A stretch of DNA of 64,000 nt from Bacteroidales bacterium. Its GTDB lineage: Bacteria > Bacteroidota > Bacteroidia > Bacteroidales > GCA-2711565. The DNA lies in assembly GCA_963678785.1 (NCBI GenBank), contig OY787449.1, positions 448,704 to 512,703 of the forward strand, in the 5' to 3' direction. A model generated the notes under the pieces. The model worked only from the letters and a program-made list of their open reading frames with translations. It was not told the origin of the DNA and ran no database searches. Both the position numbers and the translations under genes were made by a program. Of this stretch, positions 1,894 through 55,010 are shown piece after piece (positions within the stretch are counted from its first letter, which is position 1; each line of letters starts with the position of its first letter).

Positions 1894-2023
1894 TGTAACA
1901 ATGTATAAAAATAATAGCCGATATAGTAGTAAATTCAAGGGTTGTAGCTCGCTTCAACTTTTATGCAACTTGACAGGAAAGTGCCACGCATTCGGCTACT
2001 ATTCTTATACTAACCGTTGGGGG
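1894..2023 (+). repeat. attC-like structured repeat, copy E1
   Basis: The layout is GTAAC-aat-GTATAAAAATAATAGC, a ~65-nt centre, GCTACTATTCTTATAC-taac-CGTTGGGG. The 16-nt arms are inverted repeats with 2 mismatches. The first 96 nt match copy E3 at 87 of 96 positions (hand count). Confidence 0.75.
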
Positions 2024-2036
2024 TAATTTTGAGAAT

Positions 2037-2058
2037 ATACCAATAATTGGTATATTTG
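2037..2058 (+). promoter_or_regulatory. parDE promoter/operator: perfect 8-1-8 palindrome overlapping a TAnnTTTG -7 box
   Basis: ATACCAAT-A-ATTGGTAT at 2037..2053 overlaps TATATTTG at 2051..2058, 18 nt upstream of the parD ATG. ParD-type antitoxins are known autorepressors. Confidence 0.5.
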
Positions 2059-2075
2059 TAAGAAACGATAAAGCT

Positions 2076-2318
2076 ATGGGAAAAAACACATCAATATTAT
2101 TGGGAAACCATTTTGAAAAATTCATAAACAATATTATTTCAACTGGCAGATATAGTTCTACAAGTGAGGTCATCAGAACTGCTTTAAGATTGCTTGAAAC
2201 CGAAGAACAGAAATCAATAGAACTACGAAAGGCACTTGATCTCGGTGAAAACAGTAATCTTGTTGATAACTTTGACCCAAATAAACATTTAAACGAACTG
2301 CGTAAGAAACATTTATGA
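2076..2318 (+). CDS. parD: type II antitoxin, ParD family (ribbon-helix-helix)
   Basis: The 80-aa N-terminus MGKNTSILLGNHFEKFINNIISTGRYSSTSEVIRTALRLLE is the typical ParD4-type signature. Its stop overlaps the toxin start (ATGA). Confidence 0.85.
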   Translation: MGKNTSILLGNHFEKFINNIISTGRYSSTSEVIRTALRLLETEEQKSIELRKALDLGENSNLVDNFDPNKHLNELRKKHL

Positions 2319-2620
2319 GAAAACAAAATTATTGCATTAGTGAGAAAGCAGTTGAGGATTTAGAAAATATTTGGGTTTACACTCTTGAAAAATGGTCTTC
2401 TGAACAAGCTGACAGATATTACAATTTAATAACTAATGAAATTGAATTCATAGCTAATAATTTTAATACTGGTAAAGCAATGGATCATATCAGGAAAGGA
2501 TACAGATCTTCAATTGTAAAATCTCATTTGATCTTTTATCGAATGGGACAGGACAATGTAGTGGAAATAATTAGGATTCTTCATCAAGAAATGGATGTAG
2601 AAAATAAGATTAACAAATAA
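2315..2620 (+). CDS. parE: type II toxin, RelE/ParE family
   Basis: 101 aa. It shows the ParE-like pattern (A..DL..IW.Y ... HLIFYR ... VEIIRILHQEMD) and sits immediately downstream of parD. Confidence 0.85.
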   Translation: MRKQNYCISEKAVEDLENIWVYTLEKWSSEQADRYYNLITNEIEFIANNFNTGKAMDHIRKGYRSSIVKSHLIFYRMGQDNVVEIIRILHQEMDVENKINK

Positions 2621-2922
2621 AAACTACACACAACGGTTTCGTCGGTAAAAATAATCGAAAACAGATATTTATCCTCTTTTAGGTCATTGTCTTTTGAGAA
2701 AGAAAGAGAATTGGAGTGTGTTTTTTCAGAATATCAGGTTCCTATAACATATATATGACAGAATTTTTAGTTCATTGATTTTTCACTCATCTATTCTATA
2801 AAATATCCTCTTCATGCTTTTAATACCATTTTAATCACAAAGTGAGCCTTATGATATTTGGTATAATGCCGATGTATATTTAGTAGTCTTAAAATGTGCA
2901 ACAATTTTAAGGCTCAGTCTAA

Positions 2923-2978
2923 ATAACAATCGGTATAAATAGCAAAAAGACAAACCGCTACTATTCAACTTTTTGTTT
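2923..2978 (+). repeat. miniature or degenerate attC-like repeat, copy E4
   Basis: ATAACAATcggTATAAATAGC, a 12-nt loop, then CCGCTACTATTC-aacttttt-GTT. The left end matches E1 (TAACAAT.TATAAA..TAGC). The right arm CCGCTACTATTC is identical to E2. It overlaps the last codons of the convergent AraC gene. Confidence 0.45.
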
Positions 2979-3866
2979 CTTACGAAATTGTGTGGCGGTT
3001 ATTCCGGTATTGCGTTTAAAGAACTGATTGAAATTGGCAACTTCATTAAAAGCTAAAATATCAGCTATTTCTGCTATTGATTTGTTTTTTTTGTGCAACA
3101 ATGCTTTGGCCGACAAGGTTTTGTAATCAATAATTACTTTTTGCGCACTCTTGCCCGACGCTTTTTTTACACATTCGCTCAAATAAACTGGACTAATATT
3201 CATTTGTGAGGCATATTCATTTACCTCCAGAAATGTGTTGCCATTAGTATGAATGAGTTGTTCGAATTTAGCCATAATTGCATCATAGCGGTTCATACTA
3301 ATGATGCCCTCATCGTTTTGAGTGATACGTTTTATTTTATACAATAGAATCAGCAGCTGAGATCGAATTATTTCAAGTTGATGCATTTTATCAACTCTTG
3401 ATTCGTGGTAAATCTCTTTGACAATGCTTACAATTTCAGCAAAATCATCATCTTCAATTTGGTATAAGGGCAGAGTATGAAGTTTGAAAAAAGGGAATTC
3501 GTTTTGCACATCGTACGAATTATTTAATGTTTCAAATAATGAAGCTTTAAAATAGATAATATATCCTTCGTTATCATCTTTTTGTGGTTTCTTTCCATAG
3601 TTAATCGTTTGATAAGGAGAAACAATAGCCAAACTATTGTCTTTTTTTTGTAAGGTTTGATCCCCGATTTTTATTTTTACCGTATTATGAAGTAAAATGC
3701 CTACTTCAAAAAAATCTCTTTTATGGGGTGCCAAGTATTCGGCATCGGGGGTCTTGTTTTCTGCACGGTCTATTTTTATCGACCTGATATAAAACTGATT
3801 CGAATAATCGTTTGTGTCCTTATCCTTGTTTAGAAAGTAGCCTTTTATGTCGGTGTATATCTTCAT
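2961..3866 (-). CDS. AraC family transcriptional regulator
   Basis: 301 aa with a C-terminal double HTH (ISPVYLSECVKKASGKSAQKVIIDYK ... IAEIADILAFNEVANFNQFFKRNTGITATQFR). It is divergent from the RND operon. Confidence 0.85.
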   Translation of the reverse strand: MKIYTDIKGYFLNKDKDTNDYSNQFYIRSIKIDRAENKTPDAEYLAPHKRDFFEVGILLHNTVKIKIGDQTLQKKDNSLAIVSPYQTINYGKKPQKDDNEGYIIYFKASLFETLNNSYDVQNEFPFFKLHTLPLYQIEDDDFAEIVSIVKEIYHESRVDKMHQLEIIRSQLLILLYKIKRITQNDEGIISMNRYDAIMAKFEQLIHTNGNTFLEVNEYASQMNISPVYLSECVKKASGKSAQKVIIDYKTLSAKALLHKKNKSIAEIADILAFNEVANFNQFFKRNTGITATQFRKKQKVE

Positions 3867-4035
3867 AGTGTTATACCTTTTCTTTTATGGTGTCCTAGAA
3901 TCGCATCAAAAATACTAAAAAACCTAAATAGCAATCTGTTTTGCCTAAATAACAATTCATAATTAACTATTAAAACAGACTACTTTTGTCTCTAAGAAAT
4001 AAATAGGTCAGGCTATCTCAGGCTTGGTAATATGG

Positions 4036-5184
4036 ATGAGTAAAATAATAGATATGAAGATTCAAATTAGAAGTTTAATAGGTATCATCTCGCTGTGTTT
4101 AGGCATAATTGTACTTGTTTCGTGCAACCAAAAGCAAGATGATAGAAAGACGCAGACTCCTGAACTATCGGTAATGGAAGTTAAACCGAGTACACAAGAG
4201 TTTTACGAATCCTATTCGGCTACCATAAAAGGGAAGCAAGATATTGATATTCGCCCGCAAATAACGGGGTTTATCACTAAAGTAAATGTTGATGAAGGAT
4301 CAGTTGTAAAAAAAGGTCAGGTGTTGTTTCAAATCGATCAAGTGCAATACCAAGAGGCTGTAAATGTAGCGAAAGCCAATGTTGCTGTTGCGGAAGCTGA
4401 TGTTGCAACAGTTAAGCTAACCGCTAAAAACAAAAAATCGTTAGCAGATAGAAATATTATTAGCGCTTACGAACTTGAGCTTTCAGAAAACGAATTGGCT
4501 AGTTGTAATGCTCAACTTGCCGTGGTAAAGGCAGAATTAGTGAGTGCTCAAAAAGATTTATCCTACACCCGTATAACAAGCCCTACAGATGGTGTTATAG
4601 GTAAAATATCGTATCGTGTTGGAGCGTTGGTAAGTCCTACAATGTCTGATGCTATCACTACAGTTTCAGAATTCACAACCATGTACGCTAATTTTTCTCT
4701 TACAGAGAAGAAACTTCTTTCTTTGGCAAAAGACAATAACTTAACAGTAGACATCGTCAAAAATCTTCCTAAAGTACAATTGAAGATGAGCAATGGAGAT
4801 ATCTGCAGGTATTTAGGTACGATAGAAACCATTAGTGGAACCATTGATGAGACCACAGGTGCTGCCAGTATTAGAGCAGCCTTTCCCAACGAAGATGGAA
4901 TCTTACGTAGTGGTGGAACAGCTTCTGTTATTCTGCCTTATTCTCTCGAAAACTGTTTGTTAGTTCCACAAAATGCCACGTATGAGATTCAAGACAAAAA
5001 ATTCGTGTACACCGTAGATGAAAACTCGACAGTATCAAGTACCGAAATTGAAATTTATCCACTAAACAACGGCACTCAATATGCTGTAACAAAAGGATTA
5101 ACAGAAGGAGATAAAATCGTAACTGAGGGAATCAATTCCTTAAGCGATGGTTTAACGATTAAAGTAAAATCTAAAACATTATAA
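4036..5184 (+). CDS. efflux RND transporter periplasmic adaptor (membrane fusion protein)
   Basis: Lipoprotein-like N-terminus (LVSC), followed by a biotinyl-lipoyl-like hairpin and a coiled-coil region. It is the first gene of an adaptor-pump-OMF triad. The start is ambiguous: TTG 4024, ATG 4036 or ATG 4054. Confidence 0.85.
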   Translation: MSKIIDMKIQIRSLIGIISLCLGIIVLVSCNQKQDDRKTQTPELSVMEVKPSTQEFYESYSATIKGKQDIDIRPQITGFITKVNVDEGSVVKKGQVLFQIDQVQYQEAVNVAKANVAVAEADVATVKLTAKNKKSLADRNIISAYELELSENELASCNAQLAVVKAELVSAQKDLSYTRITSPTDGVIGKISYRVGALVSPTMSDAITTVSEFTTMYANFSLTEKKLLSLAKDNNLTVDIVKNLPKVQLKMSNGDICRYLGTIETISGTIDETTGAASIRAAFPNEDGILRSGGTASVILPYSLENCLLVPQNATYEIQDKKFVYTVDENSTVSSTEIEIYPLNNGTQYAVTKGLTEGDKIVTEGINSLSDGLTIKVKSKTL

Positions 5185-5187
5185 ATC

Positions 5188-8100
5188 ATGAAGTTTGATA
5201 AATTCATAACGCGGCCTGTTTTATCTTCAGCAATATCCATTTTCATTGTCATTTTAGGGTTGCTGGGTTTAGTTTCCCTACCCATCACGCAATATCCCAG
5301 TATTGCACCACCAACGATACAGGTATCAGCCACTTATACTGGAGCTAATGCCCAAACCGTTCTCAACAGTGTGGTTGCGCCATTAGAGGAGGAAATCAAT
5401 GGTGTCGAGAATATGTCTTATATGACCTCTACGGCAACCAATACTGGAACTGCCTCAATATTGGTCTATTTTGAGCTGGGCACCGATCCGGACATGGCCG
5501 CTATAAATGTGCAAAATAAGGTAAGCCAGGCAGAAGGATCATTACCTTCTGAAGTCACCAAAATTGGGGTGACTACCAGCAAACGTCAATCGAGTATGTT
5601 GATGGGGTTTGGTCTTTATAGCGAAAATGATCAATATGATTATTCGTTTTTGGAGAACTATGCCGATATCAATTTAATTCCACAAATCAAACGAATTAGT
5701 GGCGTTAGCGATGTTTTTATTACAGGATCAAACTACTCCATGCGTATCTGGTTGAAACCCGATGTAATGGCACAATATCACCTTATGCCCAGCGACATCA
5801 CAACAGCGCTCGACGAACAAAATATTGAAGCAGCTCCCGGACAATTGGGTGAGCAGGGCAATCAAACATTTCAGTATGTACTAAAGTACAAAGGTCGTTT
5901 GCAAAATGAAGTAGATTTCGAAAACATTGTTATTTCAGCCACCAGCAATGGCGAGGTTCTACACCTGAAAGATATTGCAGATATAGAACTGGGACGTTTA
6001 TCAAGTAGTGTTACGGCTAGTATAAACGGTCATCCTGGTGTCTCCGGTATGGTTTTCCAAACATCGGGTTCCAATGCGATGGATATTAACAATAGTATCG
6101 AAAGTTTCTTGGAAGAAGCAGAAGCAGATTTCCCCGATGGTGTAAAATCGGCTATCATGTTGAATACCAACGATTTTTTATACGCTTCGATTTGGGAAGT
6201 GGTAAAAACATTGCTCGAAGCTTTTCTATTGGTTATCCTGGTTACTTATATCTTTCTGCAAAATACCCGTTCCACACTTATTCCTACCATTGCTATTCCG
6301 GTTGCCTTAGTGGGGTCGTTTTTCCTGATGTGGATATTCGGCTTTAGTGTTAACCTGCTTACACTTTGCGCCATGGTACTTGCTATTGGTACGGTGGTTG
6401 ATGATGCCATTATTGTGGTTGAAGCTGTTCAGGCGAAAATAGATGCCGGTTACACCTCGGCGCGTCAGGCTTCTATAGATGCAATAGGTGAGATATCCGG
6501 TGCTGTTGTTACATCTACTTTAGTGATGATGGCTATTTTTATCCCTGTTAGCTTTACGGGCGGAACAACAGGTATATTCTTTAAACAAATGGGCTTAACC
6601 ATGGCTTTTGCTATTGGTATTTCGGGGATAAATGCACTAACCTTAAGTCCTGCATTGTGTGCATTATTGCTAAAACCTTCGATTAAAAATGGGGAAAAGA
6701 AAACTTCTTTTACACAACGCTTTCACACCGCTTTTAACGATAATTTTAAGCGCTTAACCAACAAATATAAAAAAGGAGTAAGCTTTTTTACGGCTCATAA
6801 ACTGATGAGTGGATCGCTTGTTGGCATCGTAATCATTGCTTTTGTGTTTTTATTACGCACCACTCCCACCGGCTTAATTCCTAATGAAGATCAGGGAACT
6901 ATTTTTGGTGCTCTTGCTATGCCTGTGGGAACTTCATTGGAAGAGACAACTAAAGAAATGGACAAGATATTGGAGATCGTACAAGGCATTCCTGCCATCG
7001 AAACCTATTCCCTAAGTAATGGTTATAGCCTTCTTGATGGTTCAGGTAATACCTATGGAAATCTAATGTGTAAACTAAAAGACTGGGACTTACGAGGCGA
7101 CGGAGAAAGTGTAGATGAAATTATTGCTCTGCTAAACAGAGAAACAGCCAAAGTGATTAAAAATGGGAATATGATATATTTATCACCTCCTATGGTAGCA
7201 GGATATAGTGTAACCAATGGCTTTGAATTGAAGTTGCAAGATAAAACAGGTGGTGATTTAACTGATTTCGAAACGGTTGCTAAGGATTTCATACAGAAGC
7301 TTAACCAACGTCCTGAAATAGAGAGTGCCCGTACTTCTTTTAGTGCATCGACACCTCAATACATGGTCGATGTGGATGTGGAAAAATGTAAAATCGCCGG
7401 AATTAGTCCCGATGTCATTCTATCTACATTGGAAGGTTATTATGGCGGTATTTACGCTTCTAATTTCAACCGCTTTGGTAAACTATACCGTGTGATGATA
7501 CAGGCAAGTCCGGATTATCGAACCAATACCGAAAGTTTGAATAAAATAATGGTGCGTAATGGAACAGAAATGGCGCCTATATCGCAATTTGTAACGCTTC
7601 GAAAAGCTTATGGTCCTGACAACATTAACCGCTTTAATATGTATACCTCAATAGGCATAACAGGTTCGCCTGACGGTGATTACAGCTCTGGTGAAGCCAT
7701 AAGTGCTATCAAGGAGCTTGCAAAAGAATTACCCACTGGTTACAGCTATGAATTTTCAGGGATGACACGTGAAGAAAGTAGTACAGGTGCCAATTCTACT
7801 GCTTACGTTTTGGGTCTGGTATTTCTGTTTATCTATCTATTATTGAGTATGCAATACGAAAGTTATATACTTCCCATCATCATTATACTTTCCATTCCAA
7901 TGGGATTGGCAGGAAGTTTATTGTTTGCCAATATAATGGGAGTCGATAATAACATTTATCTGCAAGTAGCACTCATTATGTTGATTGGATTAATTGCTAA
8001 AAACTCCATTCTAATTGTGGAATATGCCATTGAACGCCGTCAACAGGGATTATCGATTTTGGAAGCTGCTATTGAAGCTGCGGCAGCACGTCTTCGTCCT

Positions 8101-8346
8101 ATTATGATGACTTCGCTTACACTGATTGTTGGATTATTACCCATGATGTTTGCAAGTGGAGTTGGCGCCAACGGAAATAGCTCTTTAGGTACTGGAGTTA
8201 TTGGGGGTATGCTTGTGGGGATGATCAGTCAGATATTTATTACACCTGCTTTGTTTGTCATCTTCCAAAAAGTTCAGGAAAAATTTAAACCCATGACTGA
8301 GGATTTTAACCAAACAGCCAGCGAGAACGCAAGTATCACACAATAA
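5188..8346 (+). CDS. RND multidrug efflux permease (AcrB/HAE1-like)
   Basis: 1052 aa with a 12-TM AcrB-type layout. The N-terminus MKFDKFITRPVLSSAISIFIVILG and the VVDDAIIVVE motif are typical of the ACR_tran family. Confidence 0.92.
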   Translation: MKFDKFITRPVLSSAISIFIVILGLLGLVSLPITQYPSIAPPTIQVSATYTGANAQTVLNSVVAPLEEEINGVENMSYMTSTATNTGTASILVYFELGTDPDMAAINVQNKVSQAEGSLPSEVTKIGVTTSKRQSSMLMGFGLYSENDQYDYSFLENYADINLIPQIKRISGVSDVFITGSNYSMRIWLKPDVMAQYHLMPSDITTALDEQNIEAAPGQLGEQGNQTFQYVLKYKGRLQNEVDFENIVISATSNGEVLHLKDIADIELGRLSSSVTASINGHPGVSGMVFQTSGSNAMDINNSIESFLEEAEADFPDGVKSAIMLNTNDFLYASIWEVVKTLLEAFLLVILVTYIFLQNTRSTLIPTIAIPVALVGSFFLMWIFGFSVNLLTLCAMVLAIGTVVDDAIIVVEAVQAKIDAGYTSARQASIDAIGEISGAVVTSTLVMMAIFIPVSFTGGTTGIFFKQMGLTMAFAIGISGINALTLSPALCALLLKPSIKNGEKKTSFTQRFHTAFNDNFKRLTNKYKKGVSFFTAHKLMSGSLVGIVIIAFVFLLRTTPTGLIPNEDQGTIFGALAMPVGTSLEETTKEMDKILEIVQGIPAIETYSLSNGYSLLDGSGNTYGNLMCKLKDWDLRGDGESVDEIIALLNRETAKVIKNGNMIYLSPPMVAGYSVTNGFELKLQDKTGGDLTDFETVAKDFIQKLNQRPEIESARTSFSASTPQYMVDVDVEKCKIAGISPDVILSTLEGYYGGIYASNFNRFGKLYRVMIQASPDYRTNTESLNKIMVRNGTEMAPISQFVTLRKAYGPDNINRFNMYTSIGITGSPDGDYSSGEAISAIKELAKELPTGYSYEFSGMTREESSTGANSTAYVLGLVFLFIYLLLSMQYESYILPIIIILSIPMGLAGSLLFANIMGVDNNIYLQVALIMLIGLIAKNSILIVEYAIERRQQGLSILEAAIEAAAARLRPIMMTSLTLIVGLLPMMFASGVGANGNSSLGTGVIGGMLVGMISQIFITPALFVIFQKVQEKFKPMTEDFNQTASENASITQ

Positions 8347-28246: not shown

Positions 28247-29686
28247 ATGAAAGAAATGAATATATCTATTAATAATTTGAAACCATTTTGGTTTTTACTG
28301 ATTGGAATAGCAACTACTTCTATGACCCATATGTCATTCGGTGTTGACTTCTTTGCGTGGTTTTCTATCGTTCCATTTTTGTTATATCTAAATAATACAA
28401 AAGGTTGGAAATCAAGATTACTTTTTACTATTGCTTTAATTATTGCGTGGTCAATTGTCGTTCTGAAAATTGTTACACCACCAATACCATATTTAATGAT
28501 TTTCCTTTTTTCTATTCCAATAAGTCTGTTCCATTTACCAGCTTATTTGATTTGGGATAAATTTAAAAACCATAAATGGTCAATACTCCTATTTCCGACA
28601 ATCCTGATAATAATGGAATGGGTACAATATACCTTTACACCTTTTGCAAGTTGGGGAGTTATGGCCTATTCACAATTGAATAGTATAAATATTATGCAAT
28701 TTGTTTCTGTATTTGGAATGGCAGGATTAAGTTTCCTAATCTATTGGGTAAATGTTTCAATTGCTCAATTAATTACAAGGAAAAAAGCAAATTTGTTATC
28801 ATTGTATATACCCCTTTCAATTCTAATTATTGTAATTATTTTTGGCTCACTGCGTATTAACATAGAAAAATCAAAAGGAGTTAAAACAATGACTGTTGCA
28901 ACAGTAGGAACAAATTCAACAGTTGGCGGTTTGCCTTTACCAACAAAAGAAAGTAACGATAAAGTAATATCTAAATTACTCAAAAAAACTGAAAAAGCTG
29001 GTGATTTTGGTGCTAAAATAATCGTTTGGAATGAAGCTTCATTTTATACACTTCCAAGTAATGAAAAAGATATCCAAGACTCAATAAAGACAATTGCAAA
29101 AAAGAAAAACACTTCAATCGTTGCATCTTATGTAGTACCTATCTCTGAAAATCCTTTTAAATATGAAAATAAGTATGTATTTATCAACGGAAAAGGAGAA
29201 ATCGTATATTCGTATCTAAAACATCAACCTGTTCCTGGAGAACCTGCCATTCAAGGAACAGAACCTTTTCAGACAGTTCAGATATCTGAAAGTAGAATTG
29301 GCGGAGCAATTTGCTACGATTATGATTTTCCGTATATCGCACAAGAATTTGGAAAATTAAAAGCAGATATTGTTGCCGTTCCATCATCAGATTGGCGTGG
29401 AATAGACCCATTACATACAAGAATGTCAGCTTTTAGAGCCATAGAGCAAGGACACTCAATAATCCGCTCAACCCGATTTGGACTTTCTGCAATCATTTCG
29501 CCATATGGAGAAATGATCAGTCAATCGAGCAGTTTTGACGACAACAATAAAGTAATGATAGCCAATATACAAGCAAAAGGAATTAATACGATATATTCAA
29601 TAATTGGAGATTTGTTTATTTATCTTTGTTTAGGATTTTTAATACTGTTTATTATAGACGTAATGATAAGAAAAACCAGTAGGTAA
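28247..29686 (+). CDS. apolipoprotein N-acyltransferase-like protein (multi-TM N-terminus plus carbon-nitrogen hydrolase domain)
   Basis: 479 aa: several TM helices, then CN-hydrolase motifs (IIVWNEASF; GGAICYDYDFP with the catalytic Cys). This is the Lnt-type architecture. The stop codon TAA lies inside the GTAAC box of repeat E2. Confidence 0.65.
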   Translation: MKEMNISINNLKPFWFLLIGIATTSMTHMSFGVDFFAWFSIVPFLLYLNNTKGWKSRLLFTIALIIAWSIVVLKIVTPPIPYLMIFLFSIPISLFHLPAYLIWDKFKNHKWSILLFPTILIIMEWVQYTFTPFASWGVMAYSQLNSINIMQFVSVFGMAGLSFLIYWVNVSIAQLITRKKANLLSLYIPLSILIIVIIFGSLRINIEKSKGVKTMTVATVGTNSTVGGLPLPTKESNDKVISKLLKKTEKAGDFGAKIIVWNEASFYTLPSNEKDIQDSIKTIAKKKNTSIVASYVVPISENPFKYENKYVFINGKGEIVYSYLKHQPVPGEPAIQGTEPFQTVQISESRIGGAICYDYDFPYIAQEFGKLKADIVAVPSSDWRGIDPLHTRMSAFRAIEQGHSIIRSTRFGLSAIISPYGEMISQSSSFDDNNKVMIANIQAKGINTIYSIIGDLFIYLCLGFLILFIIDVMIRKTSR

Positions 29687-29776
29687 CACTGTATAAAAAT
29701 AATAGCGGGTTTAGTGATAAATTAAAAGGGAAACACATCAAATCCGCTACTATTCTTATACGTGGCCGTTATGTGC
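29682..29776 (+). repeat. attC-like structured repeat, copy E2 (short centre)
   Basis: GGTAAC-act-GTATAAAAATAATAGC, a 38-nt centre, GCTACTATTCTTATAC-gtggc-CGTTATGTG. Both 16-nt arms are identical to E1, but the central part differs in length and sequence. Confidence 0.7.
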
Positions 29777-29795
29777 AACTTGGTACGTTATATAA

Positions 29796-29830
29796 ACATC
29801 GTTTACAAAGTTATAGATACATCGTTTACA
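29796..29830 (+). promoter_or_regulatory. tandem direct repeat ACATCGTTTACA x2 upstream of the GNAT gene
   Basis: Exact 12-mers at 29796..29807 and 29819..29830 have starts 23 nt apart. The second ends 10 nt before the GNAT ATG. This is a possible operator or promoter element. Confidence 0.3.
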
Positions 29831-29840
29831 CTTTTTAGAA

Positions 29841-30284
29841 ATGAGAATTGAAAAAATCTCACATAACAAGAAACAATATCTTGATTTATTGCTATTAGCA
29901 GACGAGCAAGAGGATATGATTGACAAATATTTGGAAGGTGGCGATATGTTTGCACTATTCGATGATGACTTAAAGACTGTTTGTGTTGTTTTAGCGATAG
30001 ATAAGGAAAGCTGCGAAATAAAAAACATAGCAACCTATAAAAAATATCAAGACAAAGGATATGCTAAGGCATTAATAAAGTTTGTCTCAGATTATTACAA
30101 AAAGAGCTATGAAACAATGTTTGTCGGAACTGGCGAGACTCCAACAATATTATCATTTTATGAAAATTGCGGATTTAAAAAATCTCATTATATCAAAAAT
30201 TTCTTTACCGATCATTATAAGCACCCAATGTTTGAAGACGGAATACAACTTGTAGATATGGTTTATTTAAAGAAAAAATTATAA
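29841..30284 (+). CDS. GNAT family N-acetyltransferase
   Basis: 147 aa with an acetyl-CoA-binding motif-A region ([17 protein letters not shown]) and a C-terminal FYENCGFKK. Confidence 0.8.
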
Positions 30285-30359
30285 ATACTTGATGCTAATA
30301 ACAGCTATCGTTCATGGCTCCAGGATAGGTTACCAAAATCTTAAGCTAAATATTAACCT

Positions 30360-43524: not shown

Positions 43525-43877
43525 ATTCTCTATTTTTTTTAAGGCTACAAAATTAACAATTTGTAATGAATAATTGTTGATTTATAATAGGGTGTATTAA
43601 AATACCTCAAAGAGAACAGAAATTTTTAGGTTCCAATAGTCTGTCAAACAAAAAACCTATTAAAAAAATCTGACCTGATTTGATAAAAAAGCAATTTCTT
43701 ATAAATTTACATCGCAAAAGAATGGCATCTTTGAGATGATTTCCATCAGGTTAACAATCATAACCTTTATAAAAACAACCATGAGCTGTGATTCCTTAAG
43801 ATAAGGGGGGGTACTCAAAACAAATTAAGAACGCGAAAGCCGAAAAGCGCACAGAGTAGGCCCTAAAAAAACCAACT

Positions 43878-44396
43878 ATGAAAAAAATTTTATTGATGAT
43901 GGCTATAAGTATCATGGCCGTAAGTACTGCATTCTCTCAAATTGAATTTGGGATTGGTACCACTGCAGGAACAAAATTAAAGCTAAACGACAAGGGTGAA
44001 ACCCAAATGAATATCGGAATCAATGGCAGGGGGCTTTTTGAACTCAGCGACCAGTTCTTTTTAAGCGGAGGATATACCTTCTTCCTTACCTATAGCTTTG
44101 ATAACAATATAGGCAATTATACCATCGAGCATAATTACAACTATGCCTTAATCAATGCCGATTTAAACTATTATTTTCTGGATGAAATTGATTTTCTGAT
44201 TTATGGGATGGGAGGTTTAAATTACGGAATGACCCGCATAAAAATAAAGCAAAGCGGATTACCCGACATTAAAGATACCGAAGGACATTTTGATTTTGAG
44301 TTGGGAGCCGGCATCCGGATAGAAAGTTTATTCGGAGAAATTAAATATAATAATGCTCATGAAAATCTTCTTTTCACCATTGGTGTCTATTTATAA
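43878..44396 (+). CDS. small outer-membrane beta-barrel protein (paralog 1)
   Basis: 172 aa with a signal peptide, alternating beta-strand pattern and an aromatic C-terminus (IGVYL). It is a paralog of 44829..45335. Confidence 0.6.
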   Translation: MKKILLMMAISIMAVSTAFSQIEFGIGTTAGTKLKLNDKGETQMNIGINGRGLFELSDQFFLSGGYTFFLTYSFDNNIGNYTIEHNYNYALINADLNYYFLDEIDFLIYGMGGLNYGMTRIKIKQSGLPDIKDTEGHFDFELGAGIRIESLFGEIKYNNAHENLLFTIGVYL

Positions 44397-44452: not shown

Positions 44453-44828
44453 TAGTATGTAAAATTGATCACTTATTCTCTTTTTAAACATTCCTTTTTA
44501 TACAATCACTTTTTTTTGATCCATATTTATAAGGATTTTTAACAAAATTTCAATCTAAATTTTGTTAAAAAAAAATATTAACATATTTTTACTTACAATT
44601 GTTATCGTTGTTATAGTTATATAAAATACTATTTCCCAGAGCAATCCGCACCAAAAATTCTCACTAACACTTTAAACATAGGCTATGTCTACGCATACTT
44701 TTTGGCTTTTATAGCCAACAAATATTACTTAAGAATAAGAATCAAAAATAAATCGACAATTAAAAGAGAACCTAACTAATCGCAAAAATTGAAAAACGAA
44801 AAGAGCAAACCTAATTAAGAAATTAAGC

Positions 44829-48579: not shown

Positions 48580-48606
48580 AATAGTTAAAATAAAACCAGA
48601 TAAGCC

Positions 48607-49749
48607 ATGTGTAAACTCAGAGCCACTACCGCCTTAAAATGGATTTTACCCATCATTTTATTCGTCTTTAATTTACAGGCCACTCATGCCCAGGAAAGTA
48701 TGAAATCTTATCAATCCGAAACTTCAAAATACACCACAGAAATTGTAGTACCCGGCCTTCAAATTCCATGGGGAATGGCTTTTTTACCTGATGGAAGCAT
48801 GCTTATAACTGAAAAATCAGGTACACTCATCCATTTTAAAAACAATCAAAAAATAAATATTGAAGGATTGCCTGAAATCTATGTACGTGGTCAGGGTGGA
48901 TTATTGGATGTCGAACTTCATCCTGATTATGAAAACAACGGATGGATTTATTTCTCATACGGGTCGGCCGAAGGTGAGGGTGATGGAGGAAATACCGCCA
49001 TCATGCGTGCGAAGCTAAAAAGCAATGAACTAACTGAAAAACAATTGCTTTACAAAGCAGTTCCCAACACCAAAAGAGGCGCACATTGGGGTTCGCGCCT
49101 GGAATTCGACAATGAAGGATATCTTTATTTTTCGATTGGGGATCGCTACAATCGGGATGTAAATCCACAAAACATCAAACTGGATGGAGGTAAAATTTAC
49201 CGCATTCATGACGATGGCCGCATCCCTACCGACAATCCATTCATCCATACAGAAGGAGCAAAAAAAGCCATCTTTAGTTATGGTCATCGAAATCCACAAA
49301 GCATGGTTAGGCATCCCGAAACAGGCAAAATATGGATCACTGAGCACGGTCCAAAAGGAGGTGACGAAATCAACATCATCGAAAAAGGAGAAAATTATGG
49401 ATGGCCAATTGCCACTTACGGAATTAACTATAATGGAAGCATCATCACCGAAACCAAAAAAATGAAAGGCGTGACAAATCCTCTCTTCTATTGGATTCCA
49501 TCCATTGCCCCCAGTGGAATGTGTTTCATTACTTCAGATAATTATCCTGAGTGGAAAGGAAATTTATTGGTTGGTTCACTTGTATTTCAGTACCTTGAAC
49601 GCCTTGAAATTAAAAAGAATAAAGTGGTCAAACGCGAACGTTTATTTCAGGACATCGGGCGCATGCGCAATGTCCGTCAGGGACCTGATGGTTACCTTTA
49701 TATGGGCGTTGAAGGCATCGGCATTGTTAAAATCATTCCTAAAAAATAA
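48607..49749 (+). CDS. PQQ-dependent (soluble) sugar dehydrogenase, YliI/sorbosone dehydrogenase-like
   Basis: 380 aa, a beta-propeller with PWGMAFLPDGSMLITEK, GGLLDV, HWGSRLEFD, HRNPQ and EHGPKGGDEIN. Confidence 0.85.
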   Translation: MCKLRATTALKWILPIILFVFNLQATHAQESMKSYQSETSKYTTEIVVPGLQIPWGMAFLPDGSMLITEKSGTLIHFKNNQKINIEGLPEIYVRGQGGLLDVELHPDYENNGWIYFSYGSAEGEGDGGNTAIMRAKLKSNELTEKQLLYKAVPNTKRGAHWGSRLEFDNEGYLYFSIGDRYNRDVNPQNIKLDGGKIYRIHDDGRIPTDNPFIHTEGAKKAIFSYGHRNPQSMVRHPETGKIWITEHGPKGGDEINIIEKGENYGWPIATYGINYNGSIITETKKMKGVTNPLFYWIPSIAPSGMCFITSDNYPEWKGNLLVGSLVFQYLERLEIKKNKVVKRERLFQDIGRMRNVRQGPDGYLYMGVEGIGIVKIIPKK

Positions 49750-49752
49750 CAC

Positions 49753-50232
49753 ATGAAAAAGCACACCATGGTCATCGTAATCGTCCTGCCTGCCATCCTT
49801 AGTATTTATGGATTTTCAGCAACAACAAATAGCAAGCAGGATAAAGAACAACAGCAAGCACAGCTGGCCAAAAGCATGGAAGAGGGCGAAATGATTTATA
49901 TGGATTTCTGCATTACCTGCCACCGGGCAGATGGCAGGGGCATCAAAGGAGTTAACCCTCCCCTGGCGCAATCCGATTTTTTACTGAATAAAAGAGCAGC
50001 CAGTATCCGGGCCGTTAAATACGGACAAAAAGGCGAAGTCATCGTAAATGGGGTAACTTACAATGGATTGATGGCTCCGCAAGGGTTGGATGACCAGGAA
50101 GTGGCAGATGTGATGAATTACATCCTGAACAGCTGGGGCAATCAATCTGAAAAAATGGTTAGCATTAAAGAAGTTGCAGCCATTAAAGAAACCACCATCG
50201 ATGAAGGATTAATTTTAAAACCTGTTCAATAG
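49753..50232 (+). CDS. c-type cytochrome
   Basis: 159 aa with a signal peptide, the haem motif CITCH and a distal Met region. It starts 4 nt after the dehydrogenase stop. Confidence 0.8.
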   Translation: MKKHTMVIVIVLPAILSIYGFSATTNSKQDKEQQQAQLAKSMEEGEMIYMDFCITCHRADGRGIKGVNPPLAQSDFLLNKRAASIRAVKYGQKGEVIVNGVTYNGLMAPQGLDDQEVADVMNYILNSWGNQSEKMVSIKEVAAIKETTIDEGLILKPVQ

Positions 50233-50439
50233 AAGCAGGCTTATTGGCCTGATTTAAATTTTATGTCACCTCAAAAGGTAACCCTATTAAGTTATGAGCG
50301 TATAAAAGTTTATCAATCAGCTTTTAAGTTTTTATTTCTATCTCTTTTTCATTCCCATTCAACCAACCAATTCTATTCTAATAAGTTTATAGCAAGGATT
50401 ACATTCTATATCAAAACAATTGGTTTTTAATATTGAAAT

Positions 50440-51882
50440 ATGTTGAATGACAAAAATTTCCTGAAGAAACTTCGCATCCGTAAATTCGATGCGCAAACCG
50501 AAAAAGAATTCAATAGCGATTACAATAAAAAATCTGTGACTGCAGTCCAGTTAACGCTCGGGCTGATCCTTTTCATTGGGATCATCCCTTATGCGGCACT
50601 CGATAAAATTATCATCCCCGAAACTTTCAGAATTGCATGGTTCATCCGTTTCGGTATTTGGACTCCTGTTATTTTAATTTCACTTTATTTATCATTTAAG
50701 CCTTTAATGATTAAGCACCTTCAACGGATAGCAATCATTGCAAATCTTACTTTATGTTATGGCGTACTGATCATGATTTTAATGACCGAAAAATCAGAAA
50801 TTGGCTTCACCAAATATTATGCGGGATTAACTGTGACTCTATCAACCATGATCATGCTAAGAATCAGATACAAAGCCGGAATATGGATTCTTTTTTCAGT
50901 CATCTTTTCCTATTTAATCATTGCTGTTTTTAAGCAAAAAATGCACCTTCCACATGAAAACCCAAATTTCCAGGCCATTCTGATTAATAACATCTATTTT
51001 TTATTCTCAGTAGCCCTGGCCATCGGAATTGCAGTATACATGTTAGAAATATATACCCGTTTCAATTTCTGGCACCGCAAGCAACTCATTAAAGAAAAAT
51101 ACCTGATTCAGGAAAAAACCGAACAAATAAAAAAACAGAACGAGCAGATTAGAATTCAGAGTCAGGAAGTGGCCGAGATATATCAAACCAAAAACAAATT
51201 ATTTTCGATAATTGCGCACGACTTAAAAAACCCCTTCAATTCAATCATCGGGTTTTCTGACCTTTTGTTGGAAAGTTGTGAGAACAATGATCAAAAAGCC
51301 GTAAAAAGATTCAGCCGAATCATCCGCGACACCTCCACCAATACCTTCGATCTTTTAAACAACCTCCTGGACTGGTCAAAAATACAAACCAACAAAATCA
51401 CCCTCAATCCACAGGAAATAAACATCAAGGATTTGGTAGATGAGATGGTGGAATACATGTATGATTTTGCAAAACAAAAAGGAATACTACTGCAAGCCGA
51501 AACTTTTGTAACGATAAACATTTGGGCCGATCTGACTATGATTCAAACTGTTTTGAGAAACCTGATCTCCAATGCAATAAAATATTCGAGCAAGGGAGAT
51601 GTCATAGAAATTAAGATAGCCAACTACAACCGTGAACTAAAAATAAGTGTGAGCGATACCGGATTAGGCATTCCGGACGAAGACAAAAAAAAACTTTTTA
51701 AAATCAGCGATAGCATTTCCAAACTGGGCACCAATAACGAAAAAGGCACGGGTTTAGGGCTGCTGCTTTGTCAAAATTTTATCAAACTTCATGAGGGTAA
51801 AATCTGGGTCGACAGTATCGAAGGCAAAGGATCCACTTTTAGCTTCACCCTCCCAAAAATTAAAAACCCAGATTCAAACTAA
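50440..51882 (+). CDS. membrane sensor histidine kinase
   Basis: 480 aa with a multi-TM N-terminus, a coiled coil, H-box AHDLKNPFNSIIGF, N-box LISNAIKYS, and G-boxes DTGLGIP and GTGLGL. Confidence 0.88.
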   Translation: MLNDKNFLKKLRIRKFDAQTEKEFNSDYNKKSVTAVQLTLGLILFIGIIPYAALDKIIIPETFRIAWFIRFGIWTPVILISLYLSFKPLMIKHLQRIAIIANLTLCYGVLIMILMTEKSEIGFTKYYAGLTVTLSTMIMLRIRYKAGIWILFSVIFSYLIIAVFKQKMHLPHENPNFQAILINNIYFLFSVALAIGIAVYMLEIYTRFNFWHRKQLIKEKYLIQEKTEQIKKQNEQIRIQSQEVAEIYQTKNKLFSIIAHDLKNPFNSIIGFSDLLLESCENNDQKAVKRFSRIIRDTSTNTFDLLNNLLDWSKIQTNKITLNPQEINIKDLVDEMVEYMYDFAKQKGILLQAETFVTINIWADLTMIQTVLRNLISNAIKYSSKGDVIEIKIANYNRELKISVSDTGLGIPDEDKKKLFKISDSISKLGTNNEKGTGLGLLLCQNFIKLHEGKIWVDSIEGKGSTFSFTLPKIKNPDSN

Positions 51883-52919
51883 CCCGCTACGGTTTGTTGT
51901 TCTGACAATTTCATGACCAGACTTTTGCGATATTTTTTAGCTCGTCTTAGATGGGTTTTGGCTTTAGCCGAAGGATTTTCCTTAAACATTTTCAGCTCAG
52001 TTTTACAATCAACCGAGCAGCAATCCTCATATTTCTTGGCACATTCGGGGCATTGCAAAAAGAGTAGATGGCAACTGTCGTTGGCACAATTTTTATGGGT
52101 ATCGAAAGGCGTTCCACATTGATGACAGCTCGAAATAATTTGTCCATCGATGCTTTCGCCCATTCGGGCATCAAACACAAAATTTTTACCGATAAATTTA
52201 GAATCCAAACCTGCTACTTTTATTTGACGGGCATATTCGAGTACGCCGCCATGCAATTGATTCACATCCTCAAAACCATGATGCTTTAAATAAGCGCTGG
52301 CTTTTTCGCAACGAATACCGCCCGTGCAATAAAGCAAAACCTTTTCATCTTTTTTGTCTTTCAACAAATCAACCACCATCTCCAGCTCATCCCTGAAGGT
52401 ATCGGCCTGTGGACAAATGGCGCCCTCAAAACGGCCAATTTCACTTTCGTATAAATTGCGCATATCTACCACTACCGTATCGTCTTTTTGCATCTGACGG
52501 TGAAACTCCAGTCCGCTCAGGTGATTGCCTACATTGGTCACATCAAAAGCTCCTTCGTCCAAACCATCGGCTACCAATTTGGGGCGGACTTTAATGGTGA
52601 GTTTATAAAATGATTTTCCATCATCTTCCACGGCAAACTTAATCGGGATGTCTTTTAAAATTTCAAATTGTTGGAGGCTGTCAAGAAACTTATCGAACTC
52701 GTGCTCAGGCACACTCATTTGGGCATTGATGCCTTCGCGGGCCACATATATGCGCCCAAAACAATTTAATTTAAACCATGCTTTGTAAATTTCATCCCGA
52801 AAAACCTGAGGTTCGTTTAAATAGAAGTAGCGGTAAAACGAAATCGTTTTTCGTTTAAAATCTTCTTTCATCAACTTCTTTTTCAGCTCCTCCCGATTTA
52901 CCTTATTGTATAATTGCAT
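51879..52919 (-). CDS. trhO: rhodanese-domain tRNA uridine(34) hydroxylase (UPF0176/YceA family)
   Basis: It has ISFYRYF, the rhodanese active-site loop YCTGGIRCEKA, and a C-terminal Cys-rich tail. I moved the start from 53039 to ATG 52919 (MQLYNKVNREELKK). Confidence 0.85.
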   Translation of the reverse strand: MQLYNKVNREELKKKLMKEDFKRKTISFYRYFYLNEPQVFRDEIYKAWFKLNCFGRIYVAREGINAQMSVPEHEFDKFLDSLQQFEILKDIPIKFAVEDDGKSFYKLTIKVRPKLVADGLDEGAFDVTNVGNHLSGLEFHRQMQKDDTVVVDMRNLYESEIGRFEGAICPQADTFRDELEMVVDLLKDKKDEKVLLYCTGGIRCEKASAYLKHHGFEDVNQLHGGVLEYARQIKVAGLDSKFIGKNFVFDARMGESIDGQIISSCHQCGTPFDTHKNCANDSCHLLFLQCPECAKKYEDCCSVDCKTELKMFKENPSAKAKTHLRRAKKYRKSLVMKLSEQQTVAG

Positions 52920-52950
52920 CTTATTTAAATTAATTCTTAATAGCGAGTGC

Positions 52951-53085
52951 AAATATAAATGTTTATTACAAACCTGCAAGTGTGCTTTATCTAAGGCCAT
53001 AAAGCAAACAACACATCTAATTTTCTTGTATATTAGCAATTGAAATTTGTGCCGCCTGCCCGCAGTTGTTGATTAAAGAATTTTA
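52951..53085 (+). repeat. 135-bp direct repeat, copy A (left boundary of islet; trhO upstream region)
   Basis: It aligns collinearly with 55746..55880, with about four-fifths of positions identical and two 1-nt indels (hand alignment). Long exact blocks include GGCCATAAAGCAAA and TTGTATATTAGCA. Confidence 0.75.
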
Positions 53086-53097
53086 GTTCCCCCTTTT

Positions 53098-53188
53098 GTT
53101 AAGAATCAATTCAATTTTAAAAGATTGATAAAAGATAGAATCCATAAAAACCTGCGCCCTATTCCTGATATGGAGGTTATGGTGCAAG
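53098..53188 (+). repeat. degenerate attC-like repeat, copy E5
   Basis: The right end CTATTCctgataTGGAGGTTATGGTGCAAG closely parallels the E2 right end CTATTCttatacGTGGCCGTTATGTGCAAC. The left arm (GATAAAAGATAGAATCC) is weak. Confidence 0.4.
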
Positions 53189-53331
53189 AATGGTGTACAT
53201 ATAAACGAGTTACCCACAAGCAAAAAAATGAGACAGAATGAAAAAGTTGGTACAAGAAAATAAGGAGACATTATTTAAGTGAGATTATTTTAATTAACAG
53301 AAAGTGTGAATTAAATTTGGTGATTTAACAA

Positions 53332-53664
53332 ATGGATATTACTTTTGCAAATAGAAAGTTAGAAAAGTACGGTAATAATTTTACCCTTGCACAAAGGAAA
53401 CTTGGCAATGATAGAGCAACAAAGTATCATCAAAGATTGGGCGATATGAGAGACATTGACAGTTTTGCCGAATTAGAAGCCTTACCTGGTAACTTTCATC
53501 CTTTGACTGCCAACAGAAATGGTCAATGGGCTTGTGACTTAGACCAGCCTTACAGACTTGTTTTTGAACCTGCTATTAAACCAGTTCCTTGCAATGAGCA
53601 TGGAACACCTATTTTGTCTGAAATGAAAGTAGTTGATATAATTGAAATAGTTGACTACCATTAA
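53332..53664 (+). CDS. higB: HigB-type (RelE/ParE superfamily, plasmid-maintenance killer) toxin
   Basis: 110 aa with LPGNFHPLTANRNGQWACDLDQPYRLVFE and the C-terminal VDYH typical of HigB_toxin. The toxin lies upstream of the antitoxin, as in higBA. Confidence 0.7.
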   Translation: MDITFANRKLEKYGNNFTLAQRKLGNDRATKYHQRLGDMRDIDSFAELEALPGNFHPLTANRNGQWACDLDQPYRLVFEPAIKPVPCNEHGTPILSEMKVVDIIEIVDYH

Positions 53665-53676
53665 AACACTTTTATT

Positions 53677-54771
53677 ATGCTTGCAAATCAATATAAACCA
53701 GACGTTGTTTTCCACCCTGCTACTACCTTAAACGAGAAGCTAGGCGAGATGGGAATGAGCATAAAAGAGTTTGCTCTTAGAACTGGAAAACCGGAACAAA
53801 CCATTATTGCTGTACTAAAAGAGGAAAGGTCGTTAACACCTGAAATGGCTATTCTATTTGAAAACGTTACTCAAATTCCTGCAAAATTCTGGATTAACAA
53901 ACAAGCAAGGTATAACGAATACGTAGCACGAAAAAAGCAGGGAGAAGCAATTAATGAAGCCATTGAATGGGCAAAGGAGTTTCCTTATCCACAAATGGCA
54001 AAATACAATTGGGTGCCGCCTACCCGAAGAATTGAAGAGAAAACCATAAATATGCTTAACTATTTTGGTGTTGCTTCGCATCATTCTTGGGAAGGTCTTT
54101 ATGTAGAAACCGATTTAAAAGTGGCGGCTTATACTTCTCTTAAACAAACGCATGAGCCACATGCCATTTCTGCATGGCTACGACAAGGCGAATTGCAAGC
54201 CAAACAAATTGATGCCCCCGAATATGATGCTAAAAAACTAAAACGTAATATTCCGAATATGCGAAAATTAATGGTTGAGCAACCTGTTGATTTTTTCGAG
54301 CAACTTCAAAACTTGTGTCTTGAGACAGGAATAGTTCTGTTATTCACCCCCAAATTACCTAAGGTGCCATTAAGTGGTTCAACCCGTTGGTTAAACAACA
54401 AACCATTAATTCAACTTACTGCACGCTATAAAAAGAATGATAGTTTTTGGTTTACTTTTTTTCATGAACTCGGACATATATTATTACACGGTAAAAAATA
54501 TATTTCTCTTGAAAATGTTGACTTTGAGGCTGCAGATCCTGTAAAAGAAGAAGAAGCCCACCAATTTGCCATTAAGCATACATTTACACAAGAACAAGAG
54601 AAAGAAGTACTGGAAAACGAAATTATAACCGAACAGGATATTATTGAATATGCTGAAAAATTCAATACACACCCTGCTATGATAATAGGACGATTGCAAT
54701 ATGATGGTCATATTCCCTACAATATAGGAAGACAATTTATGGAACCTATCGACTTAAACCCTGAGAACTAA
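53677..54771 (+). CDS. HigA-like XRE HTH fused to an ImmA/IrrE (M78, COG2856) zinc metallopeptidase domain
   Basis: 364 aa with an N-terminal HTH (MSIKEFALRTGKPEQTIIAVLKEERSLTPEMAILFENV) and a C-terminal HExxH (FFHELGHILLH). Confidence 0.75.
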   Translation: MLANQYKPDVVFHPATTLNEKLGEMGMSIKEFALRTGKPEQTIIAVLKEERSLTPEMAILFENVTQIPAKFWINKQARYNEYVARKKQGEAINEAIEWAKEFPYPQMAKYNWVPPTRRIEEKTINMLNYFGVASHHSWEGLYVETDLKVAAYTSLKQTHEPHAISAWLRQGELQAKQIDAPEYDAKKLKRNIPNMRKLMVEQPVDFFEQLQNLCLETGIVLLFTPKLPKVPLSGSTRWLNNKPLIQLTARYKKNDSFWFTFFHELGHILLHGKKYISLENVDFEAADPVKEEEAHQFAIKHTFTQEQEKEVLENEIITEQDIIEYAEKFNTHPAMIIGRLQYDGHIPYNIGRQFMEPIDLNPEN

Positions 54772-54876
54772 TTTGAGGATGACTTAATTGTAAGCATACC
54801 CGAATGACAAAAAAGAAGCAATGAAAGTCGAAGTGAATTTGAAACATAAAATGACTGAAAACAGAGAATGCCAGTG

Positions 54877-55010
54877 GGTAACAAAGTATAAAAATAATAG
54901 CCGAGATAGTAGTAAGTTCAAGTGTTGTAGCCCGCTTCAACTTTCTTGTAATTTGACAGGAAAGTGCCACGCAAATGCGCTACGCCACTTACAATTTATC
55001 GTTGTGCGGC
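54877..55010 (+). repeat. attC-like structured repeat, copy E3
   Basis: GGTAAC-aaa-GTATAAAAATAATAGC and the centre are 87/96 identical to E1. The right arm has diverged (GCGCTACGCCACTTACA...) and ends in CGTTGTGCGG. Confidence 0.7.

Follow-up and report, generated by a model that had tools for sequence, protein, structure and literature searches.

A family of attC-like sites that probably delimits mobile gene cassettes across the Bacteroidota

A 64 kb stretch of the genome of a Bacteroidales bacterium (assembly GCA_963678785.1, contig OY787449.1, positions 448,704 to 512,703; hereafter the window) contains three dispersed copies of a structured repeat, which we call E1, E2 and E3. We propose that these copies belong to a family of attC-like sites, spread across the Bacteroidota, by which mobile gene cassettes are delimited, a reading to which we give a probability of roughly 0.8. 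The original prediction, made from the sequence of the window, had suggested attC-like sites of the CALIN or SALIN type (clusters of attC sites, or single attC sites, lacking an integron integrase) or a different family with the same logic, and it is supported here by the flank statistics, the co-orientation of the copies, the fold of the bottom strand and an IntI-related recombinase with an attI-like site found elsewhere.

An exact scan of one genome per species with the pattern GTAACNNNGTATAAAAATAATAGC, of which the right arm formed no part, found the left end of the element in at least 115 genomes of Bacteroidota and Ignavibacteriota (Flavobacteriales, Bacteroidales/Marinilabiliales, Cytophagales, metagenome-assembled genomes of the Chitinophagales type, and Ignavibacteriota). 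The element is an imperfect palindrome, or hairpin, of about 150 nt, which consists of an outer stem, an asymmetric internal loop and a main stem of 16-19 bp. In the outer, R-type stem, a variable hexamer followed by YAAC pairs with GTTR followed by a variable hexamer; an unpaired spacer (AAT opposite TAACC) leads to the long L-type stem, which has two fixed A.C/G.T positions. The outer stem, spacer and main stem are present in the aligned copies, with the AAC/GTT pairs kept in 86-88 of the 91 sequences, the right-arm base pairs each in 89-91 and the A.C positions in 88-89. A covariance model built from these 91 relatives (R1, with 8 outer pairs and 19 main-stem pairs) found many further, more divergent copies in the fetched loci. 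The centre measures 76-78 nt in 84 of 110 copies and falls into a few conserved types, E1 and E3 being type A and E2 a shortened type C. RNAalifold gave no convincing consensus substructure for the centre on either strand.

The decisive result is the complementarity between the flanks of neighbouring elements, which is a hallmark of integron gene cassettes. At least two elements are present at 55 of 109 loci, and at least four at 18; within one locus they always lie on the same strand, with a median spacing of 1217 nt and typically one open reading frame (ORF) per interval. When the 10 nt after the GTT of element n were compared with the reverse complement of the 10 nt before the AAC of element n+1, a mean of 7.18 out of 10 positions agreed, and 59 of 90 pairs agreed at 8 or more, against a mean of 3.43 for the two flanks of the same element and of 3.29 for random flank pairs, where 8 or more is reached with a probability of about 1%. 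Examples are found at L049 (GTTGCCCACAATT / AACTGTGGGCAAC) and L078 (GTTAACGGCAAGG / CCCAGCCGTTAAC). The cassette runs from the GTT of one site to the AAC of the next, with the exact phosphodiester bond below the resolution of the comparison, and its two ends are therefore complementary, as expected of a circle with one complete site. Since the flanks of elements n and n+1 are complementary at a distance of about 1 kb, readings of the element as an RNA only, as a repeat of the repetitive extragenic palindromic (REP) type or as a miniature inverted-repeat transposable element (MITE) are excluded as the sole account.

The position of the elements relative to genes bears on the same alternatives. 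The nearest upstream ORF is co-oriented with the element in 99 of 105 cases, its stop codon lying mostly 5-25 nt 5′ of the site and, in 8 cases, inside GGTAAC, and the downstream one shares the orientation of the element in 85 of 102 cases, often starting 7-60 nt past the site. A location directly after stop codons and in the orientation of the genes, as well as a stable hairpin with a central hairpin that forms G.U pairs on the + strand, would suit a REP-like, bacterial interspersed mosaic element (BIME)-like or terminator-like structured RNA of 3′ untranslated or intercistronic regions with a role in mRNA stability or termination. We consider this very improbable, as such an RNA leaves the complementarity of flanks about 1 kb apart unexplained, the main stem pairs better on the antisense strand, and the link to a recombinase described below is strict. 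Moreover, Rfam has no family for the element (none at gathering score, and chance-level matches only at E<=10), which also bears on the small RNA that the original prediction had named as an alternative.

Still less credence is given to MITEs or to palindrome-associated elements of the IS200/IS605 type inserting on their own. The elements are indeed multi-copy and nearly identical across distant taxa, and pairs of an IS91 gene and a recombinase gene stand beside elements at two loci (L007 and L052). However, the direct-repeat score around the elements is that of random pairs (2.80 versus 2.85), so that no target-site duplication was found, gene orientation is extremely biased, strands are never mixed within a locus, and the flanks co-vary with the neighbouring element and not with their own. 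The target-site duplications that the original prediction had associated with MITEs were thus not observed, and neither was a random orientation.

Two other identities of the element were rejected. A phage feature was dropped, as only 3 of 2.9 million viral contigs contain a match. A small peptide beginning MYKNNSR (1901-2026 in the window) was also dropped: its ATG is lost in about a quarter of the copies (AAA for AAT), and centres of 76, 77 and 78 nt shift the frame. ORF finders call such MYKNNSR... "proteins" of 40-70 aa across type-A elements (window 1901-2026, L063 3509-3700, and L007), and these are almost certainly artefacts of the conserved repeat.

In the window, R1 finds three sites and no other match, with scores of 152.6 bits for E1, 92.1 bits for E2 and 78.8 bits for E3:

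1885-2031, + strand: E1, an intact type-A element, from R1 and folding; AAC at 1897-1899, GTT at 2016-2018.
29673-29782, + strand: E2, a short type-C element; AAC at 29685-29687, GTT at 29768-29770; its left flank overlaps the stop codon of the Lnt-like gene at 28247-29686.
54868-55015, + strand: E3, a type-A element with a decayed right arm, from R1; AAC at 54880-54882, GTT at 55001-55003.

As originally described, these are three clear copies on the + strand with a nearly invariant left end (GTAAC-A-NN-GTATAAAAATAATAGC), and two of them, E1 and E2, have a right arm in common, GCTACTATTCTTATAC-(4-5 nt)-CGTT; with up to 3 mismatches allowed, this arm occurs 5 times, where 0.57 occurrences would be expected. 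The 16-nt arms are inverted repeats that pair save at two fixed positions, where the + strand has A.C mismatches and the - strand G.T. Identity between E1 and E3 is 91% across 96 nt, and the centre is shorter in E2 (39 nt, against 76 nt in E1). Each copy lies directly 3′ of a + strand ORF, encoding a methyltransferase for E1, an Lnt-like N-acyltransferase for E2 and an HTH_3+Peptidase_M78 protein for E3; the stop codon of the Lnt-like gene falls within the GGTAAC of E2. In RNA folding, the - strand gave the lower z-score for both E1 (-4.35, versus -2.7 for the + strand) and E2 (-5.2, versus -3.2). E3 has lost its right arm or retains it in decayed form, its fold is not above that of shuffled sequences and it forms no stable hairpin; it is probably inactive. 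The putative remnants of further sites in the window likewise fold no better than shuffles, and only E1 and E2 therefore look functional. Two degenerate copies that had been proposed at 2923-2978 and 53098-53188 were not upheld, since R1 gave no match there at E<=10 with filters off and their folds are at shuffle level. Putative decayed site ends do lie near both, at other coordinates that follow from the logic of cassette boundaries.

We then examined the proteins encoded near the elements for a recombinase. A phmmer search of 882 ORFs near elements, in which an IntI1 sequence served as a probe only, returned five tyrosine recombinases, all of them Xer-like and two of them IS91-associated; a classical IntI beside the elements was rejected as a candidate, as the search gave Xer-like proteins only. 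The recombinases of L063, L102 and L108 are 45-54% identical to each other, and their genes lie immediately 5′ of the array and are co-oriented with it. In an independent test, 80 metagenome loci were fetched by homology to these three proteins and then searched with R1. All 37 distinct element matches, at 22 loci, lie on the recombinase strand and downstream of the gene, and no elements were found in the upstream flanks of up to 10 kb at the 80 loci. In most loci the stop codon of the recombinase gene is followed by a short perfect palindrome and then [ACT]GTT[AG]. At 19 of the 22 loci, the left flank of the first element is complementary to a GTT site at 7 or more of 10 positions; 17 of these sites lie 38-211 nt past the recombinase stop codon, mostly behind a short palindrome. 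In summary, the recombinase gene is followed by an attI-like site and then by cassettes and sites in alternation.

Two observations accompany these loci. Many of the metagenome contigs L125-L204 (for example L128, L130, L143, L153 and L202) end within about 150 nt past the recombinase stop codon; contigs ending at repeated sites are consistent with assembly breaks, and arrays are thus probably under-represented in assemblies. In L007 (808-2881, - strand relative to the elements) and L052 (3283-5312), an IS91-family transposase gene and a gene for a Xer/IntI-like recombinase of 293-305 aa form an operon-like pair beside elements in the opposite orientation, with the start of the recombinase gene about 80 nt from the element in L007.

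It could be argued that a classical, insertion-bearing IntI elsewhere in the genome is the true partner of the sites, and that the linked Xer-like gene is a frequent passenger or a first cassette. In0 elements, which have an IntI gene but lack attC sites, have been reported in Bacteroidetes (bioRxiv 10.1101/2022.02.28.482270), and the inspection covered about 8 kb around each element. We regard this as improbable, as no IntI-type protein is encoded within 8 kb of any of the 115 fetched elements. In addition, the linked recombinase gene always lies upstream of a palindrome and GTT site matching the first cassette, a place that a cassette gene does not occupy, and the elements in the loci found through the recombinase are, without exception, downstream and co-oriented.

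By Pfam, the array-linked recombinase is composed of Phage_int_SAM_4 and Phage_integrase. It scores 219.3 bits against the NCBIfam model for XerA/integron integrases (NF040815, cut-off 220), and its best match by sequence in the Protein Data Bank (PDB) is VchIntIA (2a3v; 152 bits, 31-34% identity), followed by XerA (142 bits) and XerD (81 bits). By sequence it is the closest relative of integron integrases and archaeal XerA, with no IntI insertion. The family counts at least 7,905 proteins at E<=1e-40, and databases name its members XerD, site-specific integrase or, rarely, "tyrosine recombinase/integron integrase". An N-terminal extension of 100-270 residues gives weak HARP matches, and in an AlphaFold model (mean predicted local distance difference test, pLDDT, 78) it is built from two beta-beta-alpha-beta-beta-alpha modules. 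A fold search with this model returned XerA and VchIntIA first; it resolves the catalytic core only, leaving the N-terminal domain with a weak HARP hint. It is conceivable, with slightly less than even odds, that the sites belong to a separate Bacteroidota-wide integron lineage missed by current finders, whose integrase would use an N-terminal tandem HARP-like module instead of the IntI-specific domain to read long, bulge-free bottom-strand attC hairpins, and which would seed solitary docking sites behind core genes chromosome-wide.

The fold of the elements suggests how such a recombinase may act. When folded with DNA parameters, 177 of 220 elements are more stable as the bottom strand (mean difference -1.7 kcal/mol, p = 9e-23), as are 95 of 113 divergent copies; this is the strand asymmetry that the original prediction had proposed to look for. 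Across the crossover, the partner of the L arm is a variable hexamer that forms a duplex only by pairing with the other flank, which points to a folded strand as the substrate, as in integrons, rather than to a conventional double-stranded core site. For XerCD, the folded single-stranded attP of phage CTX is a substrate, which shows that single-stranded hairpins are open to a Xer-type core. In this reading, the linked recombinase would excise and insert cassettes by recombining folded sites, its preferred substrate would be the better-folding bottom strand as single-stranded DNA, and the crossover would fall in or next to the GTT. GC skew was tried for orienting the sites relative to replication and was uninformative.

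Several points weigh against reading the family as integron-like sites. The canonical stems of E1 and E2 are continuous, with no extrahelical bases. The R-box consensus RYYYAAC/GTTRRRY occurs in 15 of 188 cases for each box, versus 11.8 by chance, and is thus not enriched, only YAAC and GTTR being conserved; the centre is conserved across taxa to a degree far above that of typical attC sites. The IntI-specific insertion is missing from the recombinase (15 residues in the alignment, versus 58 in IntI4), which reaches 216 bits, in two stretches, against the NCBIfam integron integrase model TIGR02249, for which the cut-off is 265. Elements were found in only 22 of the 80 recombinase loci, many of these contigs stopping right after the gene. 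In the window itself, the neighbouring "sites" are weak remnants, the start of a cassette belonging to E2 was looked for upstream and not found, and the 64 kb hold no recombinase homolog, in line with the original prediction, which had reported no intI. Finally, excision, circles and the choice of strand are what we infer.

Three of these points, namely the bulge-free stems, a Xer-like linked recombinase without the insertion that reads extrahelical bases, and the presence of sites in the window with no linked recombinase, would also fit the same cassette logic operated differently, with recombination on double-stranded or cruciform DNA or by the ordinary Xer enzymes of the host. This is unlikely in our view. 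A variable hexamer as the partner of the L arm makes a poor double-stranded binding site, and the greater stability of the bottom strand, where G.T replaces A.C, is systematic. The position of the recombinase gene at the head of the array is strict, and the established use of the folded CTX attP by XerCD makes a Xer-type core compatible with single-stranded substrates. We therefore retain the reading of attC-like sites recombined in folded form by the linked enzyme as the preferred one.

The logic of cassette boundaries was applied to the window. Besides E1, E2 and E3, the following features were mapped there:

228-260, + strand: decayed site end ahead of cassette 1, with the short hairpin TATGTTT/AAACATA, CGAGCCAAACC and GTT (258-260) in this order; fold at shuffle level.
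258-1899, + strand: cassette 1, an alpha/beta hydrolase (likely start 288, end 1034) and a class I methyltransferase (1031-1873), from Pfam.
2016-2634, + strand: cassette 2, parD (2076-2318) and parE (2315-2620), from Pfam ParD_antitoxin and ParE_toxin.
2620-2657, + strand: left-end remnant of the site of the parDE cassette, AAAACTACACACAAC-GGT-TTCGTCGGTAAAAATAATCG, read from the sequence; no R1 match, unstructured.
2923-2978, + strand: one of the degenerate copies originally proposed, by eye AATAAC-AAT-C-GGTATAAATAGC ... GCTACTATTC; unsupported, with no R1 match at E<=10 and a fold z-score of -0.4.
28247-29686, + strand: Lnt-like gene, which carries E2 behind it.
29768-30302, + strand: GNAT cassette with its ORF at 29841-30284, from Pfam; missing at the same place in the relatives L116 and L117.
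30290-30340, + strand: tentative weak mini site 3′ of the GNAT gene, TGATGCTAATAAC-AG-CTATC...GATAG-GTTACC; 9 of 13 positions complementary to the right flank of E2; structure at shuffle level.
53190-53221, + strand: remnant of a right end, in which the next cassette starts, ...TACATATAAACGA-GTTACCCACAAGC, with GTT at 53209-53211.
53209-54882, + strand: cassette with two ORFs, one of 110 aa without a Pfam match (53332-53664) and one for an HTH_3+Peptidase_M78 protein of the ImmA/IrrE-like kind (53677-54771), from Pfam; ends complementary.
55001-55696, + strand: cassette with a CrtO-type acyltransferase gene (55084-55656), from Pfam PF18927.
55680-55775, + strand: tentative weak candidate site, CACAAC ... 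ATTGTTGTG, read from the sequence; unstructured, no R1 match.

The ends of these cassettes are complementary to differing degrees. At 258, GTTACAGGGCATT matches the reverse complement of the left flank of E1 at 12 of 13 positions, and cassette 1 accordingly begins with GTTACAGGGC and ends with GCCCTGTAAC. The parDE cassette begins with GTTGGGGGTAATT and ends with AACTACACACAAC (10 of 13 complementary), and AAAACTACACACAAC at 2620-2634, straight after the parE stop codon, is the complement of the right flank of E1 at 9 of 13 positions. At 53209, GTTACCCACAAGC is the complement of the left flank of E3 save at two positions that are mismatched family-wide. The acyltransferase cassette ends with ...GCCGATTGCACAAC, which is only a partial complement of the right flank of E3. 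As for the cargo, Pfam agrees with the original assignments of ParD, ParE, GNAT, the HTH_3+Peptidase_M78 protein, the CrtO-type acyltransferase and the hydrolase with its methyltransferase, and gives no support for "higB" (ORF 53332-53664). E1 and E3 sit in clusters of two to three sites with decayed neighbours, the cargo of which comprises the hydrolase and methyltransferase, parDE, HTH-ImmA and acyltransferase genes. E2 is a solitary site fixed behind the Lnt-like gene, where it has captured the GNAT cassette. In summary, the window sites appear to be solitary or decayed docking sites, possibly of a CALIN/SALIN-like kind.

Relatives differ from the window at these places. The GNAT cassette is missing after Lnt in L116 and L117; in relatives of 86% identity, a different, degenerate element stands after the Lnt ortholog, and the ortholog of the 30360 gene, rather than a GNAT gene, comes directly behind it. 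In a relative of 81% identity, the left flank is followed by an insertion of about 340 nt, another element type and other genes, and a Lutibacter relative has the outer stem alone at the Lnt site (GCCAGCATGTAAC-AATGATAAT-CGTTACACTAGC), followed by unrelated genes. At the E3 cluster, the 53-61 kb block is missing as a whole, elements included, from a relative with a 90% identical TrhO.

The E3 cluster is further marked by a direct repeat, D3, of 84 nt and 85% identity. Its first copy, D3a (52987-53070), covers the promoter and 5′ end of the TrhO gene and its second, D3b, lies at 55781-55864; they stand on either side of the block of two cassettes to which E3 belongs, and both terminate in AGTTGTT(G/A). 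In the close relative L205, D3 is present once and the block is missing. A Campbell-type insertion of a circle bearing a diverged copy is one possible origin.

Some further observations concern the sites and cassettes in other loci. In L118 (3140-3495), a GC-rich insertion of about 340 nt splits the element right after its left flank (AAAGCAGCAGGTAAT, then CGAG...); a search of this insertion against Rfam gave no match at E<=0.1, and it could be a site-specific parasite of the attC-like sites. Whole cassettes are duplicated in tandem at three loci: in L102 a defence-type pair of AAA_21 and RloB occurs twice (3355-5161 and 5429-7235 in flipped coordinates), in L111 units of about 490 nt are repeated three times (1202-2327), and L108 has paralogous lipoprotein cassettes with identical R boxes. 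In L063 (5541-6815), the cassette region 3′ of the recombinase includes an ORF whose translation, judged by eye, is that of a reverse transcriptase of the group II intron type; attC sites are targets of some group IIC introns. Two other features were noted in the window. At 43830-43862 (+ strand), just 5′ of the ORF at 43878-44396, lies a match to the Rfam DUF805b RNA motif (RF02914; 36.8 bits, gathering score 35.6). At 44523-44584, in an AT-rich intergenic region, lies an inverted repeat of 28 nt with no relation to the element family; its arms are 79% complementary and separated by 6 nt.

In the prevailing view, the IntI-specific domain is both essential to integrons and diagnostic of them, and Bacteroidota have almost none; CALINs, too, are all but missing from the literature on this phylum. 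In surveys with IntegronFinder, Bacteroidetes hold only In0, plus one complete integron in Salinibacter (bioRxiv 10.1101/2022.02.28.482270), and a 2024 preprint lists Bacteroidota among the clades "previously found without any integrons"; one review counts Bacteroidota among the phyla with detected integrons. The IntI-specific insertion has been called essential for integron function (PMC8138268). Outside the subscription literature we found no description of this site family or of an array-linked integrase without the domain, and no paper with the arm sequences. The system described here appears to work like an integron, without the integrase domain and the R-box consensus that serve as criteria for one. 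If our reading is correct, cassette capture would be older or more widespread than the IntI domain suggests, current surveys would undercount cassette platforms in a dominant phylum of marine, soil and gut habitats, and the family would offer a natural experiment on the recognition of folded DNA by Xer-type enzymes. For annotation, it accounts for recurrent repeats of about 150 nt after genes, for spurious MYKNNSR... ORFs and for assembly breaks beside recombinase genes.

Among known systems, the sites resemble most the attC sites of integrons, such as class 1 attC and the Vibrio VCR. Both are imperfect palindromes with R and L boxes separated by an unpaired spacer, an invariant AAC...GTT and a terminal region of a variable type; both lie directly 3′ of a co-oriented, mostly single ORF, form co-oriented arrays, leave the remainder of the R′ box to travel with the next cassette, fold better on the bottom strand and carry accessory, toxin-antitoxin and defence-type cargo. 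Unlike in attC, the L stem is far longer here (16-19 bp), two fixed A.C/G.T positions replace the extrahelical bases, RYYYAAC/GTTRRRY is not enriched, centres of a few conserved types are shared between orders, and the same arm sequence recurs in at least 115 species.

The recombinase compares with IntI in a similar manner. VchIntIA (PDB 2a3v) is its best PDB match by sequence, and its gene also heads the array, with an attI-like site beside it; it differs in having 15 residues in place of 58 in IntI4, and hence no IntI-specific insertion, a TIGR02249 score below cut-off and 100-270 additional N-terminal residues with weak HARP-like repeats. Its gene is co-oriented with the array in every locus, whereas intI is divergent from the cassettes. 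The "integron-like" subgroup of tyrosine recombinases of Smyshlyaev et al. 2021 is named as a close system as well. The window sites, with no recombinase in 64 kb and with E2 as a single site behind a housekeeping-type gene, may correspond to CALIN and SALIN, although that category is defined operationally by the attC model of IntegronFinder and the neighbours in the window are decayed.

Two further systems share individual traits. Xer recombination on folded single-stranded DNA (CTX attP with XerCD) and archaeal XerA, the second-best PDB match, likewise rely on a Xer-type core without the IntI insertion, but they integrate whole elements at dif, and cassette arrays, a dedicated recombinase linked to an array and an attC-like family are all missing from them. 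REP and BIME sequences are multi-copy, extragenic imperfect palindromes after genes, as are the elements described here, which differ from them by strict co-orientation, by flank complementarity of the cassette type and by an array headed by a recombinase gene, with no RAYT gene seen.

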